A DNA stretch of 64,000 nt, from contig CAVPHD010000003.1 in NCBI GenBank assembly GCA_963704165.1, forward strand, positions 128,001 through 192,000, given 5' to 3'. The notes below the pieces were generated by a model, which ran no database searches, was not told the DNA's origin, and saw nothing but the letters and a program-made list of their open reading frames with translations. Each line of letters opens with the position of its first letter. Positions within the stretch are counted from its first letter, which is position 1. The position numbers and the translations under genes are program-made. The stretch comes from an uncultured delta proteobacterium (GTDB lineage Bacteria; Myxococcota_A; UBA9160; SZUA-336). Shown piece by piece: positions 29,055 to 42,258 of this stretch.

Positions 29055-32000
29055 ATGACGATCGCGGTCGTCGCAGAGAAGCCCTCGGTGGCGCGCGACA
29101 TCGCGCGCGTCCTCGGTGCGAGCTCGCGTGGCGACGGCTGTCTGCGCGGGAACGGCTACGTCGTCACCTGGGCGATCGGCCACCTGGCGTCGCTCGCGCA
29201 GCCTCACGAGATCCGCCCGGAATGGCGCGCGTGGCGGCAGACGCTCCTGCCGATGATCCCCGAGCGCTGGCCGCTCGTCGTCTACGAGAAGACGCGCAGC
29301 CAGTTCGAGATCGTCTCGCGGATCCTGAACGACCGCGACGTCGAACGCGTGATCTGCGCGACCGACGCGGGGCGCGAGGGCGAGCTGATCTTCCGCTACA
29401 TCTGGGAAGCCGCGGGACTCGAGGGTGCGGGCGCGCGAAAGCCGGTCGAACGGCTCTGGATCTCGTCGCTCACGCCCGACGCGATCCGCGCCGGGCTCGC
29501 GAATCTGCGCAGCCAGACGGAGGTCGATGGCCTGGCCGATGCGGCCCGCGGACGCAGCCGGGCGGATTGGCTGGTCGGCATGAATCTTTCGCGCGCCTAC
29601 ACGCTCTCGCGTCGCTCGTCCTCGCGCAACGACTTGCTCTCGGTGGGACGCGTGCAGACACCGACGCTGGCGATCCTGGTCGAGCGCGAGCTCGCGATTC
29701 GGTCCTTCGTTCCCGAGGACTACTTCGAGGTGCAGGCCGACTTCCGCGCGAAGGGTGCGCCGGAGGATGCACCGAGCCTACCGCGGAACCTGGTTCCGGC
29801 CGACCGCGAAGGGCGCGGACGGCGAAGCGCAGGAACTCGCGCGTCGGCTTCCGGCCGACGGTGAAGACGGCGGAGAAGATCGTCGCTCGCGCACGCACCG
29901 GGCAGGCGTCGATCGAATCGGTCGAGGCGCAAACGCGCCGACTCGCGCCGCCGCAGCTCTACGACCTGACGGAGCTTCAGCGCGCGGCGAACCGCATCTT
30001 CGGCTGGAGCGCGACGCGCACGCTCGAGGTCGCCCAGAGCCTGTACGAGTCGAAGAAGGTGCTCTCCTATCCGCGCACGGACAGCCGCCACCTCTCGACG
30101 TCGGTCGCGGCCACGCTGCCGAAGATCGTGCGCGCGATCTCGGGGCCGTATCTCGAGAAGCTCGCGGCCGGAACCGGCGAGCGCCCGCTCGGCGCGCGGT
30201 TCGTCGACGACGCGAAGGTCAGCGACCACCACGCGATCATCCCGACCGGGCATGCCCCCGCGAAGGCCGGGCTCTCCGCGGACGAGGCGCGTCTCTTCGA
30301 CCTGGTCGCACGACGTCTGCTCGCGGCCTGGCACGCGGATCACGTCTACGCGACGACGACCGTCGTCACCGCGATCGCGAACGTGACGCCCGAGCCGATC
30401 ACCGACCGCTATCGCAGCCAGGGCAGCTCGGTCGTCGCGATCGGCTGGCGCGCGCTCGAAGGCGCGGCGACCGGCGACGGCGAGGCGCTGCTGCCGTCGG
30501 GCCTCGCGCGTGGACAGGCCCAGGACGTCGTCGACGCCCGGGCCGAGCGCAAGCGCACGCGCCCGCCGCGGCGCCTGACGGAAGCGACGCTGCTCACGGC
30601 CATGGAGACGGCAGGACGGACGCTCGAGGACCGCGAGCTCTCCGAGGCCATGCGCGAGACGGGGCTCGGAACGCCGGCGACGCGCGCCTCGATCATCGAG
30701 ACGCTGCTCGAGCGCAAGTACATCACGCGGGACGGGAAGGCGCTCGCGGCGACGGACAAGGGCGTGGAGCTGATCGAGATCGTCCATCCCGACGTGAAGA
30801 GCCCGCTGATGACCGGCCAGTGGGAGGCGCGGCTCGCGCAGATCCAGCGCGGCTCCGGAGAGCTCGAGAGCTTCATGCGCGACATCGAGACGTACGTCTG
30901 CGACGTCGTGAAGCGCGTCCGAACGGAGCCGCCGAGCGCGCACGCCGCTCCACCACGCGACGACGCTCCGCCGCTGCCCTTCGCCTTCGAGCGCGAACGC
31001 GCCGAGCCGCAAGCGCCGACCCCGCCCGGCGAGCTTCTCGGTCTCTTGCGGCGCCGATTCCGATTCGAGAGCTTCCGCCCGTTCCAGGAAGAGGTCTGCC
31101 GCTCGCTGACGAGCGGCTCGGATGCGCTTCTCGTGATGCCGACCGGAGCGGGCAAGTCGCTCTGCTATCAGCTTCCCGGTCTCGCGCGCGCCGGTACGAC
31201 GCTCGTCGTTTCGCCGCTGATCGCGCTGATGGACGACCAGGTCGCGAAGCTCCAGGCGCAAGGCCTTCGCGCGGAGCGCATCCACTCCGGGCCGCGCGCG
31301 CGCGGAATCCCAGGCCGTGCTCCGCGCGTATCTGGACGGGAGGCTCGACTACCTGTTCATCGCCCCCGAGCGGCTCGCCGTGCCGGGCTTTCCCGAGAAG
31401 CTCGCGCAGCGAACGCCGGCGCTGGTCGCGGTCGACGAGGCGCACTGCATCTCGCAGTGGGGGCACGACTTCCGGCCCGAGTACCGCATGCTGCGCGAAC
31501 GCCTGCCGGCGCTCCGCCCCGCGCCGATCATCGCGCTGACCGCGACGGCGACTCCGATGGTCCAGCGCGACATCGTCGCGCAGCTCGGCATCGACAAGGC
31601 GAAGCGCTTCATCCACGGCTTCCGGCGCACGAACATCGCGATCGAGCTGGTCGAGGCCAAGCCGTCGGCGCGCGACACCGCGACCGAGCGCCTGCTTGCG
31701 CGCGCCCGGGCGCCGTCCCGCCATCGTCTACGCCCCGACGCGCAAGAAGGCCGAAGCGCTCGCGTCCCGGCTCGACCGATCGTTCCGGGCGGCCGCGTAT
31801 CACGCCGGCATGCCGCCGCGCGATCGCGACGAGGTGCAGCGGGCCTTCATGGACGGCGCGCTGGAGGTGATCGTCGCGACGATCGCGTTCGGCATGGGCA
31901 TCGACAAAGCCGACGTCCGCACCGTCGTGCACACGGCCCTGCCGAGCAGCGTCGAGGGCTACTACCAGGAGATCGGACGCGCGGGACGCGACGGCGCCCT

Positions 32001-33052
32001 CTCGCGCGCGGTGCTCTTCCACGGCTACGTCGATCTCCGCACGCACGAGTACTTCCTCGCGCGCGACTATCCCGACATCGAGGTGCTCGAGCGGGTCTAC
32101 CGGACGCTCGGCGCGAAGCCCGAGCCGCGCGCCGAGCTTCAGCGCGACCTGCGCATGGATCCCGACGAGCTCGAGCGCGTGCTCGAGAAGCTCTGGATCC
32201 ACGGCGGCGCGATCGTCGATCCCGACGAGAACTCGGCCCGCGGACACGACCGTTGGCGCGAGCCGTACCAGGCGCAGCTCCGGCACAAGAAGACGCAGCT
32301 CGACCAGATCCGCCGCTACGCCGAGAGCAACGCCTGCCGCATGCTGCAGCTCGTCCGGCACTTCGGCGACGAGGCGGACTCGGGCGCGGAGTGCGGAATC
32401 TGCGACATCTGCGACGCCGGCAGCGCCGAGGCGCTCGGATTCGTCGCGCTCGACGCTGCGCAGGAATCCGCGCTGGAGCGGATCGTCGGCGCGCTTCGCG
32501 CCCGCAACGGCCAACCCTCCGGAAAGCTACACCGCGAGGTGTTCGGTGACGCGCTCGAACGGCGCGAGTTCGGGCGGCTCGTCTCGGGGCTCGTGCGCGC
32601 CGGCCTCGCGGTCGAGGAGAGCGAATCGTTCGAGCGCGATCTCGAGACGATCGCGTTCTCGCGGCTTCGCCTGACGCGGTCCGGGCTCGAAGCCGACGCC
32701 GCGGCGCTCGCCTCCGTGCGGATCGAGCGCGAGAGCGAGCCGGAGCGTGCACCGCGCAAGCCGCGCGCGCGGGCAGGACCGCACACGCACACGCGCACGC
32801 ACGAAGGTCCCGGCTGCGGACGCCGATCCGAGCATCGACGGCGCGCTGCTCGGCGCGCTGATGCGCTGGCGCGGCGCCGAAGCGAAGCGTCGGCGCATTC
32901 CCGCGTTCCGCGTCATGACCAACGCCGCGCTCCAGGGCATCGCCTCGTCCCGGCCGAGCGACGAACGCGAGCTGCTCGCGGTGAAGGGCATCGGCCCCGC
33001 GCTCGCAGCCAAGTACGGTCCCGCCCTGCTCGACCTCGTGCGAGGCCGGTAG
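29055..33052 (+). CDS. topB-recQ: DNA topoisomerase III - RecQ helicase - HRDC fusion protein (~1330 aa; about 5 frameshifts)
   Basis: TOPRIM VVAEKPSVA, ATDAGREGELIF, SVGRVQTPTL, active site SYPRTDS, DHHAIIPT, GLGTPATRA; then in the same frame FRPFQEE and MPTGAGKSLCYQLP; later DEAHCISQWGHDFRPEY, ATIAFGMGIDK, QEIGRAGRDG, CR...CGICDIC, and HRDC LMRWR..EAKRRRIPAFRV...GIGP. Confidence 0.9.
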
Positions 33053-33069
33053 TCCGGCCGGAAGGCCCG

Positions 33070-33972
33070 TCAGCGTGAGCCGCGCGCGACCGCCGCCTTG
33101 TGCGTGTGGCTCGAGATCGCATCGACGAGCTGCGGAAAGATCGGCCGCGGCATGTCGTGGCCCATGCCGGGAATCAGCAGCAGCTCCGCGCCCGGGATTG
33201 CGGCCGCGGTGTCGTGCCCTCCCTCGACGGGAACGAGCGGGTCGTCGCTGCCGTGGATGACGAGCGTCGGCGCGCGGACGCTGGCGAGTTTGGGAGCGCG
33301 ATTGCCGTGGGCGAGGATCGCGGCGAGCTGACGCGCCTGCCCTTCGGGGTGATTCGAGCGATCGTAGAGCGTCGCGCTGCGCGTGCGGATCAGCGCCTCG
33401 TCGAACGGGAAGCCGGGGCTGCCGATCTGCCGCCAGGTATTCACCGCCGCGTCGATGCTCGCCTCGCGGCCGACCGGCGGCGGCGTCATGAGCAACGCGA
33501 GGATCTCGGGTCGTGCGGGCGGGAGCGCGGGATTTCCGGTCGTGGACATGATCGAGACCAGGCTGCGCACCCGCGCGGGATGCCGGATCGCGACGGTCTG
33601 CACGATCATCCCGCCCATCGAGGCGCCGACGAAGTGGGCGTCGTCGAGGCCGAGCGCGTCGCAGAGTCCGATCGCGTCGTCGGCCATGTCGTCGAGCGTG
33701 TAGGGGACCGAGACGGCTTCTCCGCTCGCGGCCGCGGTCATCAGCGCGATCGGGTTGGGGACCCCGTGCGAGTCGAAATGCGACGAGAGGCCGATGTCGC
33801 GGTTGTCGAAGCGCACCACGAAGTGACCGCGGGCGGCGAGCGCTTCGCAGAACAGCTCGTCCCAGAGCAGCATCTGCCCGCCGAGCCCCATCACCAGGAG
33901 CAGCGGCTCGGCGCCGCGATCCCCGAAACTGTCGTACTCGATCCGGATCCCGTTCGCGTCGATGTTTGGCAT
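33070..33972 (-). CDS. Alpha/beta hydrolase
   Basis: FDNRDIGLS, nucleophile [20 protein letters not shown]. Confidence 0.92.
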
Positions 33973-34017
33973 GCGCGAAGTGTCCGCTCGCGCGCACCTC
34001 GGGGTCAAGCGGCAGTG

Positions 34018-34539
34018 CTAGAAGTCGCGCTCCATCACCGTGCGGCGTCCCTCGCGCATCGCGCTCTCGATCGCGTCGTCGCAGAGCCCGCGCAGCTTGT
34101 CGGAGAGGACCTCCATGACGGCGTCGGAGGTGCTCATGCCCGAGCGCTCGCGCACGTAGGATTTCAGCTTCGAGACCACGACCAGGACCTCGCGCTTCGG
34201 CTTGCTCGTGGCCGGTCGCGACGAGGGCACGATCCGGCGCTGCGGCTCGCGCACCGGCGCGGCTCCGGGCGCCGATGCCGGTGCCGACGCGCCCGCGGCC
34301 TCCTCCGCCTGCTCGCGGAGCCAGGCCTCGCGCGTCGGCGCGCGCCGCTCCTCGGCCCAGGCTTCGCGGTGGTTCATCAGCGGCAGATGGACGTCCCAAC
34401 ACGACGTCGAGCAGAACACGAGTCCCGTGCGCTTGCGGTTGCAGGTCGAGACGTTGCACACCCAGAAGGTCCTCGTGAAGCCGATCTCCTTCTTGCAACT
34501 GCTGCAGCGCCGCCAGAAGCTCGTACCCGCCTCACTCAT
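34018..34539 (-). CDS. Bacterial histone with N-terminal ZZ-type zinc finger (ZZ histone)
   Basis: C12/C15/C28/C33/C43/C47/H51/H57 zinc ligands; Ala/Pro/Ser-rich linker; C-terminal [57 protein letters not shown] closely resembles the Bdellovibrio histone Bd0055 and contains the RxTxxxxD signature; RBS GGAGG. Confidence 0.88.
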
Positions 34540-34645
34540 GCGTTCCCTCCGAAGTCCGCGCGATCCCGAGATGCCAGCATACTGCGATCGGCAGCACGCA
34601 CGCAGATCCGGCGCAGCTCTGGGTCATTCGTGCACGGGCGCGCGA

Positions 34646-34683: not shown

Positions 34684-36000
34684 ATGATCGGGATCACCAT
34701 CGGAAGTTACGAGATCGCCGAGAAGATCGGCTCGGGTGGCGTCGCCGACGTCTACCGCGCCAGCGATCAGCTGCTCGGACGGAACGTCGCGATCAAATTC
34801 CTGCGCGAGGGTCTCGGCGATCGGCCCGAGGTCGTCGGGCGCTTCCAGACCGAAGCGCGGACGCTCGCCCAACTGATCCACCCCAACGTCGCGCTCTTGT
34901 ACTGCCTGCTTCGCGAAGGACCGCACCTGGGCATGGTGATGGAGTACGTCGAGGGACGGACGTTCGCGCAGCTGCTCGCAGCCTCCGGGCGCCTCGCGCC
35001 CGAACGCGCGCTGCCGCTCGTGCAGCAGGCGCTCGCGGGAATCGGTCATGCGCACGCGGCCGGCATCGTGCACCGCGACATCAAGACGTCCAACCTGATG
35101 CTCGCGACGAACGGCACGGTGAAGGTGATGGACTTCGGGATCGCGCGCTGTCTCGGCACGGATCGCGCGACGCGCCACGGTCACATGGTGGGGACGATGC
35201 AGTACATGTCGCCCGAGCAGGTACGCGGCGAGGAAACGGACGCACGCTCGGACGTGTACGCGCTCGGCGTCCTGCTCTACGAGCTGCTGAGCGGCGAGCT
35301 TCCCTTCGATTCGGACAACGACTACCAGCTCTGCCGGGCACAGATCGAGGAGCCGCCGCGGCCGCTGCGAATGCTCGTTCCGGACCTACCGGACTCGCTC
35401 GAAGCGGTGGTGGCGCGAGCGCTCGCGAAGGATCCGGCCGATCGGTTCGCCAGCGTGCACGAACTCGGCGATGCGCTTCAGAGCTCTTCTCGCCGCACCG
35501 CGGAGGCCCGCCTCACCGTCGATCGCGAAGCTCCCGTCACGCGCGAGCTCGCACTCGAGCAGGCCGAGCAGATCGCGCTCGCGGGCACGCGCTCCTTCAC
35601 GCCCACGGGCTCTTCACCCGCTCCGCGCAAGTCGACGGTCCGTGGCGCCGCAAACGTCCCCACCGATGTGGCGCCCGTCGAGGCCGAAACGGTCGTCGTG
35701 CCCGCGCCGCGCGCGTCTCGCCGCGGCAGGCTCGCCATCGTCGCCTGCGCGCTGATCGCGCTCGCGGTCGTGATCGGGGTGAATCTCGTGGGGCTCGAGG
35801 AGCGATCCGAGCCCACGCCGTCGATCGAGATTCGCGCTTCCGAGGCTGCGCCGGTGGGGCCGCCGATCGCGGTGCCACCGGCACTTCAGTCGGCAACGCC
35901 GAAGGCCGCTAGGTCTCTAGCTCCCAAGCCGACGGCCGCGGCCACGCAGACGCAGGAAGAGCCGCCAGGAGAAGCCAGTTGGGTCATCCGAAGGCGCTGA
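34684..36000 (+). CDS. Hanks-type Ser/Thr protein kinase with one TM helix
   Basis: [63 protein letters not shown]; short Pro/Ala-rich external tail. Confidence 0.93.
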
Positions 36001-38770: not shown

Positions 38771-41700
38771 TCAGGCGTCGGGTGCCGATTCCTCGAGCCG
38801 GTCGAGCAAGAGACGCGCGGCGCGTCCCGCGTAGTGGTCGAGGCCGAGCGGACGCAAGCGCGCGATCGCAAGCTTCGCGTGCGCGACTTTGGCCCCCTCG
38901 TCGCCCCGCATTCGGGCGACCTCGGCCAGGCCGAGGTGCGCGCGCCCTTCCACCTGGGCGAGGCCGCAGGACTTCGCGCGCGCGGCCGCGTCCGCGAAAT
39001 GACGCTCGGCGGTATCGAGATGTTGCAGACCGGACGCGAGCGCGACCAACCCGAGCGACAACGCGGCCTTCGCCTCGCGGAGCCGTCCGCCCGCTCGAGC
39101 CACGCGCGCCTCGGCCAGACGGCGAGCGCGCGCGACCTCGGAGTGCTCGAGGAGCGCTTCGACGATCGCCTCGGAGCCGGAGCCGAGATCCCCGTTCGAG
39201 AGCAACCCGCGCTCGAGCCGATCGATCTCGGCGCTGCTGACGCCCGTCGGGCCCCGCTGCGCGCGAACCAGGAGAAGAGTCGCCGCGGCGGATCTCCGAG
39301 AGGCGAGGCTCTCGATCGCCTCGGCGATCGGCAAGGCGACCTTCGCCCAGCGCTCCGCTTCGTCGTACGCGCCGCGAGCGAATGCGATCGACGCGAGCAT
39401 CGAAGCCGACGCGGCCTTCACCGTGCGGTTCGCGAAGCGGTCCGCGAGCGCGAACGATTCCGCGATCCACGACGCGGCGGTCTCGTAATCGCCGCTGTCG
39501 AGGAGCAGCCGGGCGCGGAAGAAACGTGCACCCATGTACGGCTCGGTTCCGCGCGATGCGTCGCCGTTGCGCTCGAACTCCGCGAGGATGCCGTCGACCA
39601 GGCGGCCCGCCTCTTCGAAGCGCGCGTCGAGGACGTAGGCGAAGACCAGCCCGCGCACCGCGCGCACGATCGAGAGCGCCGAGCCCGAGCGACGCGCGAT
39701 CTCGACGCTCTCCTCGACCATGGCGATCCCCTCGGCGAAGTGCTCCTGAGGGCCGTTCAAGGTCAGCAGGCCATAGGCCGCCAGCAGGTTCGAGTGCAGC
39801 TCGAGATCGCCGACCTCCTCGGCGAGTTCGATGCCGCGCTGCGCCGCGCGTCGATCCGCGTCGGACTCCGAGTCCCCGTAGACCGCTGCCGCGGTACAGA
39901 TCCCCACCGCAGCTTCGAGAGCGATGCGCTTCAGCGTCTGCGCCGGAGTCCGCGTCTCGTCGAGCACTCCCTCCGCGAGAAGCCACGCCTCGCGATAGAG
40001 CCGCATCGCGTCGCCGTACGAAGGGAGCGCCTGTGCCTGCTGAGCGGCCGCCAAGAGCGCGCGGATCCCCCGCGTGCGGTCGTCGCCTCGGGCGAGATGG
40101 TGAGCGGCGAGCGCGAGCCGACCCCGAGCGTCACCGAACTGCGTCGAGTCGCGACTCTCCGCTTCGAGCACTTCCGCAGCGCGATCGTGGAGCGACCGGC
40201 GTTCGCGCAGGAGCAGGCCCTCGTACGCGACCTCCTGCGTCAGGCTCTCGCCGAAGCGAAGCTCGTCCTCGGCCATGCCCCCGCTGCGGTGCAGCACGCC
40301 GCGCCGCTCGAGCTCTTCGAGCTCGGAATCGACGTCGATCGGCTCCTCCGCGAGGAGCACCGCGAGATGTCGTCGCCTGAACTGCCGGCCGAGCACGGCG
40401 GCGACCTGCGCGACGCGCTTCGCGCCCGGCCGGAGCCGATCGATCCGCGCGCCGAGGACCTCCCCGATCGTATCGGGAATGCGGATCTCCTCGGAGCTCC
40501 GCGTCGCCAGGACCCGCCCGTCGCTCGCGACGAGCGTGCCGTCCTCGACCAAGGTGCGCGTCAGCTCCTCGAGATAGAAGGGATTCCCGTCGGCCTTGCG
40601 CAGGATGCGCTCCTCGACCTCGCGGGGGGCGGGGCCGCCGGCACGCGCGCGCACGATGCGAAGCGCATCCGCCTCACCGAGCGGGCGAAGCCGCAGCTGC
40701 GTGAACGCGCCGTTCGGCTGCCAGCTCGGTTGGTGGTCGGGGCGGTAGGTCGTCACGATCATCAAGCGCGCGCTGCCGGTGCGCGCGACGGCCATCTCCA
40801 GGATGCGGCGAGACGCGTCGTCGAGCCAGTGGAGATCTTCGATGATCATCACCACCGGTGCGCGGAGCGAGGTGCGCGCGATCAACCGCGAGACCGCGTC
40901 GAATCCGCGCAGCTGCGCAGGATCGCTCTCGTCGGCCTGCCTTTCCTCGACGGGGATCGAGAGCAACCAGCACAGGTCGCTGTAGCCCTCGTCCCGAGTC
41001 CCGTCCTCGCCGCTCAATCGCTTCGAGATCTTCTCGCAGGCGCAGCGCTCGTCGTCGGCCGGAGTCACGTCGAACCAGCGCCTCAGCATCGCCGCCCACG
41101 GCGCGTACGGCACCGAGCGCGTCAGCGACGAACAACGCGTTTCGAGCAGCTCGAGCTCCCTTCCCTCGAGCCGCTTCCTGAACTCGTGCACGAGGCGCGA
41201 TTTTCCGATTCCGGCGTCGCCCACGATGGAGACGACCTGCGCGAGCCCGCCTTCGAGGCGATCGAAGCACGCCTCGAGCTGCGCGAGCTCCGCCTCGCGG
41301 CCGACGAACGGGGTCAGCTCGCCGCGCTCGCCGCTGAAAGAGGGGGCCCGCTCGGCCAGGCCATCGACCTGGTGCGCGGTCACGGGCTCGCTCCTTCCCT
41401 TCACGTCGAAGGGCCCGACCGGCGAGGTGCCGAACCGGCCGTGCAGGAGCGCACGCGTCGCGTCCGAGATCACGATCGTGCCGGGCGCGGCAATCGACTG
41501 AAGTCGCGCGGCGAGGTTGGTCGTGTCCCCGATCGCGGTGTAGTCCATCTTCAGGTCGTTGCCGACGGTACCCGCGACGACGATCCCGGTGTGGATGCCG
41601 ATGCGCGCGCGCAGCGCGACGCCGCGTTCCGCGAGCAGCCGCTTCGAGAGCTCGCCGAGCGACGATTGGATCGCGAGCGCCGCGCGCACGGCGCGCTCCG

Positions 41701-42193
41701 GAGCGTCCTCGTGCGCGATCGGCGCGCCGAACAGCGCCATGAACCCATCGCCTGCGAGCTGATTGACGATTCCCTCGAAGCGGTAGATCTCGGCGAGGAC
41801 GAGCTCGAGATAGCGATCGAGCAGCTCGCGGTAGACCTCGGGATCGAGGTTCTCGGCGATCGCGGTCGAGCCGACCAGATCACAGAAGAAGACCGTCGCT
41901 CGCTTTCGCTCCCCCGCCACCGCACCCGACGACCGGATTCTCGACGCGAGCGTCTCTGGAATGTGTCGCGCGATTCGCGCGAGCTGCTCGTCGATCGGAG
42001 CCGTCGGCTCGCTCGTGTTCGGGCTCGAAGGTACGGACGCGTCGCCCTGCGCGCGCCCGCACTCGGGGCAGAACCGCCAGGTGGGCTCCAGCCGGGTGCC
42101 GCACTCCGAGCACGCGGCTGGGACCGGCGCTCCGCAGGCGTGACAGAACTTCTTTCCGGGCAGGAGCTCGGTCCCGCACTGCGCACAGGGCAT
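38771..42193 (-). CDS. Double zinc ribbon - class III nucleotide cyclase - AAA/STAND ATPase - TPR-like protein
   Basis: Four CxxC pairs; FCDLVGST, AGDG, DYTAIGDTTNLAARLQ; FVGREAEL, GDAGIGKS, IEDLHW, GNPFYLEEL; helical C-terminus. Confidence 0.92.
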   Translation of the reverse strand: MPCAQCGTELLPGKKFCHACGAPVPAACSECGTRLEPTWRFCPECGRAQGDASVPSSPNTSEPTAPIDEQLARIARHIPETLASRIRSSGAVAGERKRATVFFCDLVGSTAIAENLDPEVYRELLDRYLELVLAEIYRFEGIVNQLAGDGFMALFGAPIAHEDAPERAVRAALAIQSSLGELSKRLLAERGVALRARIGIHTGIVVAGTVGNDLKMDYTAIGDTTNLAARLQSIAAPGTIVISDATRALLHGRFGTSPVGPFDVKGRSEPVTAHQVDGLAERAPSFSGERGELTPFVGREAELAQLEACFDRLEGGLAQVVSIVGDAGIGKSRLVHEFRKRLEGRELELLETRCSSLTRSVPYAPWAAMLRRWFDVTPADDERCACEKISKRLSGEDGTRDEGYSDLCWLLSIPVEERQADESDPAQLRGFDAVSRLIARTSLRAPVVMIIEDLHWLDDASRRILEMAVARTGSARLMIVTTYRPDHQPSWQPNGAFTQLRLRPLGEADALRIVRARAGGPAPREVEERILRKADGNPFYLEELTRTLVEDGTLVASDGRVLATRSSEEIRIPDTIGEVLGARIDRLRPGAKRVAQVAAVLGRQFRRRHLAVLLAEEPIDVDSELEELERRGVLHRSGGMAEDELRFGESLTQEVAYEGLLLRERRSLHDRAAEVLEAESRDSTQFGDARGRLALAAHHLARGDDRTRGIRALLAAAQQAQALPSYGDAMRLYREAWLLAEGVLDETRTPAQTLKRIALEAAVGICTAAAVYGDSESDADRRAAQRGIELAEEVGDLELHSNLLAAYGLLTLNGPQEHFAEGIAMVEESVEIARRSGSALSIVRAVRGLVFAYVLDARFEEAGRLVDGILAEFERNGDASRGTEPYMGARFFRARLLLDSGDYETAASWIAESFALADRFANRTVKAASASMLASIAFARGAYDEAERWAKVALPIAEAIESLASRRSAAATLLLVRAQRGPTGVSSAEIDRLERGLLSNGDLGSGSEAIVEALLEHSEVARARRLAEARVARAGGRLREAKAALSLGLVALASGLQHLDTAERHFADAAARAKSCGLAQVEGRAHLGLAEVARMRGDEGAKVAHAKLAIARLRPLGLDHYAGRAARLLLDRLEESAPDA

Positions 42194-42258
42194 CCACTCA
42201 CCTTCGGCCGGTCGTCCCGACCCGTCAAGCAACGTTCTTGGCTACGATGCCGGGCACC

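Follow-up and report, generated by a model that had tools for sequence, protein, structure and literature searches.

A gene of 173 codons on the minus strand of the analysed stretch of DNA (64,000 nucleotides, referred to here as the window) combines a basic, ZZ-like zinc finger with a C-terminal bacterial histone fold, and it almost certainly belongs to the ZZ histones that Schwab et al. 2024 defined (PMC11390915). ZZ histones are a class of the α3 histone family that has been described computationally, with D0LYE7 of Haliangium ochraceum as an example, in agreement with the original prediction, which had placed the protein in a class that is catalogued from sequence and functionally obscure. 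The protein shares with this class the N-terminal C4 + C2H2 finger, the C-terminal bacterial-dimer-like fold, and a eukaryotic ZZ pocket that is not conserved, and nothing that defines the class differs between the two. The gene itself is thus an ordinary member of a published class, for which no experimental study was found in the open-access literature.

The feature is real and conserved. The open reading frame extends from 34539 to 34018 with an ATG start, and the finger and the histone fold lie in one frame with a biased codon composition (GC3 0.93 versus GC2 0.56), distinguishing the gene from a single-fold histone without added domains. From 2314 candidate proteins, 1900 homologues were retained at E ≤ 0.001; those carrying a taxon in their name belong to Myxococcota, and the ZZ-histone profile matches 92 of the 301 sampled genomes of the phylum. 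Since no Pfam or NCBIfam family was matched above its own cut-off and most of the named homologues are called hypothetical, the danger of misannotation, which had been anticipated, is a real one. No ZZ-histone match was obtained in phage and plasmid records, and a search for promoter- or terminator-like sites at the gene returned none. No RNA record was listed for the gene, which has no bearing on its expression. The features of the gene, with the evidence for each, are as follows.

34018-34539, minus strand: ZZ-histone gene, 173 aa (P0002); open reading frame, homologues, codon bias
34546-34550, minus strand: GGAGG 6 nt upstream of the start codon, likely the ribosome-binding site; inspection of the upstream sequence
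34336-34515, minus strand: zinc finger, residues 9-68, basic and ZZ-like in fold, lacking the acidic cage for N-termini; ligands, model, alignments
34297-34332, minus strand: variable helix behind the finger, residues 70-81, which some relatives lack; models, locus comparison
34195-34296, minus strand: low-confidence Ala/Pro/Ser/Arg linker, residues 82-115; model, mean identity of 25% over 33 relatives
34228-34239, minus strand: conserved short linker motif RR[IV][VLIAM], residues 101-104; shuffle comparison in two sets
34021-34194, minus strand: α3-truncated HBb/Bd0055-like histone fold, residues 116-173; alignment, model, DNA contacts

The neighbourhood of the gene is common to only 3 of the 21 loci compared, all of one genus, and a conserved operon was rejected on this ground. 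An alpha/beta hydrolase gene lies directly downstream (33070-34008, minus strand) and a divergently oriented Ser/Thr kinase gene upstream (34684-36000, plus strand), an arrangement confined to the genus. Further along, positions 29055-33078 (plus strand) hold an apparent topoisomerase-RecQ helicase fusion split over several frames, in which the RecQ part was identified by Pfam and the other part is presumably a topoisomerase; two congeners have the corresponding gene in one uninterrupted frame of about 1350 codons, and the split frames are likely assembly indels. Positions 38771-42232 (minus strand) encode a protein of 1153 aa with double zinc ribbon, adenylate/guanylate cyclase, AAA_16, and TPR domains.

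The histone fold and the linker

The C-terminal part of the protein has HBb/Bd0055 of Bdellovibrio bacteriovorus as its best match in both sequence and structure. By alignment, residues 116-172 match the HBb chains 8cmp (E 1.4e-9) and 8fvx (E 1.7e-9), while in the full-length model the same block (pLDDT 83-92) is composed of two helices, 123-133 and 139-162, and a short third one. In Foldseek searches with the histone fold, HBb ranks first (E 1.8e-4, TMt 0.72, 48% identity), followed by HLp and HTkC. The three-helix histone fold of about 57 residues that had been proposed for the C-terminus, together with its likeness to Bd0055-type histones, is confirmed by these results.

HBb/Bd0055 (8cmp, 8fvx, 9ezz) is an abundant, apparently essential singlet of 64 aa, and its short-α2, truncated-α3 fold is common to both proteins (PMC10627809, PMC11317129), as are the Ser-Lys motif and the RD clamp. 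The window protein differs from it in 115 extra N-terminal residues and in a fold that is near neutral (11 K/R, 11 D/E). When the main DNA contacts listed for HBb in PMC11317129 are followed through the alignment, 8 of 10 are kept or conservatively changed. Six are identical (S123=S9, K124=K10, K126=K12, S138=S24, T167=T53, and R171=R57), and two show a conservative exchange of Lys for Arg (K16 to R130, K52 to R166). The two changed contacts are T8, replaced by V122, and N22, replaced by S136, a position at which 58 of 74 relatives have Asn. The residues of the Arg-Thr and Arg-Asp clamps, R165, T167, R171, and D172, are invariant in all 74 sequences. By analogy with HBb, homodimerisation as well as DNA binding and bending without sequence preference are likely.

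An α3-type fold is also shared with the face-to-face histones (HLp 9qt0, HTkC 9f2c), with an E value of 3.8e-6 to HLp. The Arg and Asn of the tetramer interface, described as a feature of these histones in PMC11390915, are not present at the aligned places of the window protein in the HLp alignment, where our mapping would put S159 and E163.

The linker had been described as a disordered stretch of Ala, Pro, Ser, Thr, and Arg; the model does assign it low confidence, but it is not featureless, carrying a short motif at residues 101-104. This motif, RR[IV][VLIAM], occurs in 30 of 48 linkers, compared with a mean of 0.5 and a maximum of 4 in shuffled sequences, and in 22 of 59 single-fold proteins of a second, partly overlapping set, compared with 0.39 in shuffles. 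A contact across the dimer is one possible role. The motif is missing from tandem two-fold forms (0 of 5 loci and 0 of 8 representatives, with two shared between these sets and the forms possibly related to one another). Such forms, in which one finger is followed by two tandem histone folds, giving one finger per pseudo-dimer (L041-L045; P0092, P0238, P0298, P0300, P0346, P0371), make up 8 of the 150 cluster representatives. An internal start producing a short, finger-less histone was also considered. At residue 96 of the window gene, a GTG is preceded by a weak GGAG at a distance of 8 nt; the internal start was rejected for the window lineage because none of the four congeners has a start codon at that position and no start position is common to the 39 loci.

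The zinc finger and the absent N-terminus cage

Eight putative zinc ligands, C12, C15, C28, C33, C43, C47, H51, and H57, show no variation among 65 homologues and are kept in 99-100% of 149 diverse sequences, in accordance with the Cys6-His2 finger that had been read at residues 12-57. As domain borders, these positions hold for the ligands only, since the folded finger, with its strand 62-66, ends only near residue 68, and the helix at 70-81 comes after it. A finger model based on the 149-sequence alignment reached a pLDDT of 89.5, compared with 35-49 for the finger in the earlier full-length model, and consists of strands 8-11, 18-20, 24-28, and 62-66 and helices 45-55 and 70-81. The ligands named for D0LYE7 in the Fig. 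4 legend of PMC11390915 map onto the window protein at a constant offset in 7 of 8 positions; the sixth, C53, lies two residues off a C-x3-C spacing. This spacing of the fifth and sixth ligands (finger at window 34336-34515) is found in 99% of the 149 sequences, and C53 in the legend is possibly a numbering slip.

In a Foldseek search with the finger, ZZ domains from p62 and BIG fill the first seven rows (best E 0.22, probability 0.85, TMt 0.63). A VIA-align comparison with 48,161 chains gave a best Z of 4.4 and none of 5 or above, with many ZZ entries at Z 3.4-4.0 interspersed with U-box/RING, LIM, TRASH, and B-box fingers. The VIA-align list is headed by chains from the SAGA HAT module and from RSC (its top two rows); we take these to be the ZZ domains of Ada2 and Rsc8, which are of the scaffold type. 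Given these values and the mixture of finger types, ZZ is the nearest fold of the modelled finger through a link that is remote and statistically weak, and the ZZ-type label of the original prediction can be retained in this sense. An assignment to MYND, HIT, or TRASH instead was rejected, as the model has an extra C-terminal strand and ZZ domains rank first. Weak profile matches were obtained to zf-FCS (9 of 41 fingers), zf-FLZ (7), and zf-MYND (5), as well as to 2das and L24e, and the Pfam ZZ family (PF00569) is absent from the 23 families matched by these 41 fingers at E ≤ 5; in a search of the genome with PF00569, the window gene was not matched. Searched against 1.84 billion proteins, the finger profile retrieves no more than 302 clusters, which identifies the finger as a tight family.

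The finger is the best-conserved part of the protein, with a mean identity of 68% over 33 genome loci, compared with 60% for the histone fold and 25% for the linker. One of its loops is nearly fixed (V30 100%, S31 97%, and T32 96% of the 149 sequences), and K16, which follows the second Cys, and R58 are occupied by K/R in 99%. Basic residues are conserved at positions 10, 16, 35, 37, and 58 and aromatic ones at 9, 26, 48, and 61, and 144 of the 149 fingers carry a net positive charge. Stand-alone finger proteins were observed at six loci of families f37 and f39 (L035-L040), in genomes that all match a ZZ histone as well; as the finger also occurs without a histone, it is a module able to function by itself.

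The original prediction had interpreted the finger as a reader domain built into the protein. Two aspartates of p62 grip the N-terminal amine, D129 immediately following the first Cys and D149 two residues ahead of the fifth (PMC6098011), and ZZZ3 loses binding when D824 or D848 is mutated (PMC6138639). The cage columns were mapped by ligand position from PMC6098011, with a presumed equivalence to the ZZZ3 numbering. The first column (p62 D129) corresponds to S13, where Ser accounts for 81%, Asn for 11%, and Asp or Glu for 0% of the 149 sequences, and the second (p62 D149, ZZZ3 D848) corresponds to V41, where Val, Ala, Tyr, or Phe is found and Asp or Glu again reaches 0%. The eukaryotic ZZ domains of p62/SQSTM1, ZZZ3, p300, HERC2, BIG, and Nbr1 share with the window finger the eight ligands and the strand after the last His; the finger differs from them in the ligand spacing of its second half, in the lack of a Pfam ZZ match, in the replacement of the acidic cage by Ser, Val, and Lys, and in its net positive charge. 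Schwab et al. likewise state that the eukaryotic ZZ pocket is not conserved in ZZ histones (PMC11390915). With both cage aspartates missing and a basic finger, the reader assignment is unsupported, and judging from these residues, reading of N-termini or histone tails in the eukaryotic manner is unlikely. The absence of the pocket of its eukaryotic relatives suggests that the finger would tether some other partner to DNA.

A second histone and its distribution in the class

A search for a stand-alone Bd0055-like partner, which had been suggested along with the original prediction, found none in the genome (84% complete), and no Bd0055-like singlet is among the matches listed for the 31 other genomes of the family that were searched. 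DUF1931 was likewise not found in the genome. A second histone of 70 aa was found with PF00808 on a separate contig, C4.

G000:C4:271336-271548 (L075:1498-1710), plus strand: second histone P0122, a tail-less, archaeal-length singlet; PF00808 search

The best solved match of P0122 is archaeal HPhA (E 1.1e-5), with α2 aligned ungapped. It keeps arginines and an RKT motif aligned with what we take to be archaeal DNA contacts, and it lacks the His that presumably belongs to the four-helix bundle. Matches to PF00808 occur in 38 of the 301 genomes of the phylum, all in the window's class. Across 80 GTDB loci and its own, the P0122-type locus is fixed, with a gene that we take to be larC-like in 70 and one that we take to be groEL in 57, and P0122 is therefore regarded as inherited and not as a contaminant. 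The role of the 'sprocket' Arg is given in PMC10627809, where a short α2 is held to be diagnostic of bacterial singlets, and nucleosomal-type histones have been held to be exclusively archaeal (PMC12701072); the archaeal-length singlets of the window's class stand in contrast with both statements. The names of the window's class and phylum are both absent from the searched files of the PMC10627809 supplement. In other classes of the phylum, more distant α3-type singlets were observed (L066-L074), some of which have short, lysine-rich N-terminal tails.

The co-occurrence of these proteins was followed in 121 genomes of the window's class, many of which are incomplete and which, being kin, are not independent. 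Finger-covering matches are present in at least 96 of them. The archaeal-length singlet is found in 77 genomes, distributed over every family except f5 (0/37) and f9 (0/1), and a separate Bd0055-like fold in 37, namely 36 of 37 in f5 and 1 of 1 in f9, among the matches listed. Ten of these 37 Bd0055-like calls were confirmed by sequence and the others derive from match range and contig; a fold-only match in G312 was not counted, as it was taken to be one half of a ZZ gene split at the end of a contig. Among the matches listed, no genome (0 of 121) has both types of singlet, 93 of the 96 finger-bearing genomes also have a singlet histone, and 21 genomes have a singlet with the finger unmatched. 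A second histone has been reported in only 50% of ZZ-histone proteomes overall (PMC11390915), a figure that does not describe this lineage, and the near-complete co-occurrence may therefore be special to the class. Because of the incompleteness and kinship of the genomes, the either/or pattern may reflect as few as one or two swaps.

Two further ideas on the singlets were examined and rejected. An in-place swap of one singlet for the other was discarded because the Bd0055-like singlets (10 loci, L055-L064, with flanks of about 1.5 kb) and the 80 archaeal-length loci have no common neighbour family. A recent origin of the f5 singlets from the ZZ gene was discarded because they form a group of their own (support 98) apart from most ZZ folds, in a tree that was built by a quick method from 58 columns and is suggestive only.

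Possible roles of the ZZ histone

The reading that we favour, at a probability a little short of even, is that of an accessory, DNA-anchored adaptor. The C-terminal folds would pair as in HBb, and this homodimer would bind DNA regardless of sequence and bend it. On flexible tethers, the two fingers would dock onto a conserved, negatively charged partner, most likely a protein component of the chromosomal or transcriptional machinery, and not onto protein N-termini. The ZZ histone would then be a low-abundance accessory on chromatin whose main builder would be a separate histone with a single domain. The strict conservation of the finger, including its fixed loop and fixed basic residues, would suit a specific partner, and the SAGA HAT and RSC chains at the head of the VIA-align rows, the occurrence of the finger without a histone, and the singlet found in nearly all finger-bearing genomes, and in further ones without a finger among the matches listed, are consistent with an accessory adaptor. 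In Bdellovibrio, from which all evidence on abundance comes, the ZZ histone is weakly expressed (PMC11390915). The protein Bd3044, which should be this ZZ histone because the Bdellovibrio genome has two histones, is apparently unable to replace Bd0055 (PMC10627809), and both histone genes peak in the late growth phase (bioRxiv 10.1101/2025.09.24.678257); these three observations would fit an accessory adaptor. Against it stand a neighbourhood that gives no clue to a partner, the weak likeness to ZZ domains, and the second histone in just half of ZZ-histone proteomes (PMC11390915). Judged from sequence, the basic finger surface would fit direct binding to nucleic acids equally well.

In that case, the finger and the arginine motif of the linker would bind DNA or RNA, and the dimer would bridge or clamp nucleic acids with no protein partner, which we consider somewhat unlikely. 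The positive charge of nearly all fingers, the conserved basic and aromatic positions, and the di-arginine motif in the linker all speak for such arms, and RNA-associated fingers (eL24/TRASH type, Bcd1, and the CPEB1 ZZ) turn up as weak matches in the structural and profile searches, although such matches do not rise above background. Moreover, the stand-alone fingers, of about 60-70 aa, would be expected to bind weakly alone, and a nearly invariant Val-Ser-Thr loop is seldom needed by non-specific nucleic-acid binders.

Pairing of the ZZ histone with the bulk singlet, placing one finger per dimer in ordinary chromatin, is decidedly unlikely. It would account for the natural finger-histone-histone fusions with exactly one finger per pseudo-dimer, for the near-complete co-occurrence with a singlet in the class among the matches listed, and for the joint peak of the two Bdellovibrio histone genes (bioRxiv 10.1101/2025.09.24.678257), but the sole singlet found here and in most families of the class is archaeal-length, and the geometric match would be poor because the archaeal-length α2 is several residues longer than that of α3 histones. 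In addition, the ZZ gene persists across the change of singlet type, and the tandem fusions use two α3-type folds. Recognition of free N-termini or histone tails, as by the ZZ domains of p300, ZZZ3, HERC2, and p62, is very improbable, for although the nearest folds are ZZ domains (p62, BIG, ZZZ3, p300, and HERC2 among them) and the Asn found at position 13 in 11% of sequences is also present at the first cage position of p300/CBP (PMC6138639), the finger lacks both aspartates that ZZZ3 requires (PMC6138639) on a basic surface, belongs to a tight family without PF00569 matches, and coexists in this genome with a second histone that starts directly at the fold and has no tail.

This analysis adds three points to the published class: the residues of the finger allow the eukaryote-style reader model to be put aside, the linker carries a conserved motif, and two kinds of singlet histone accompany the ZZ histone as alternatives. 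The consulted passages of PMC11390915 make no mention of this motif, of the forms with two histone folds in tandem, or of a pairing with either singlet type throughout the class. Specific mutational handles can now be named, namely K16, V30-S31-T32, R58, and the motif at 101-104, and Bd3044 of Bdellovibrio offers a culturable system for the function of ZZ histones. Returning to the accessory adaptor, it is possible, though doubtful, that it forms part of a two-tier system in which the ZZ histone acts as an accessory tether beside a bulk slot filled by either an archaeal-length, HMf-like singlet (77/121) or a Bd0055-like one (37/121), never both. The strict alternation of singlets beside a constant ZZ histone constitutes a natural experiment on bacterial histone function. 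If the two-tier system is true, two structurally different types of histone would be functionally exchangeable in bacteria, and bacteria would have evolved their own division of labour between core and variant histones.
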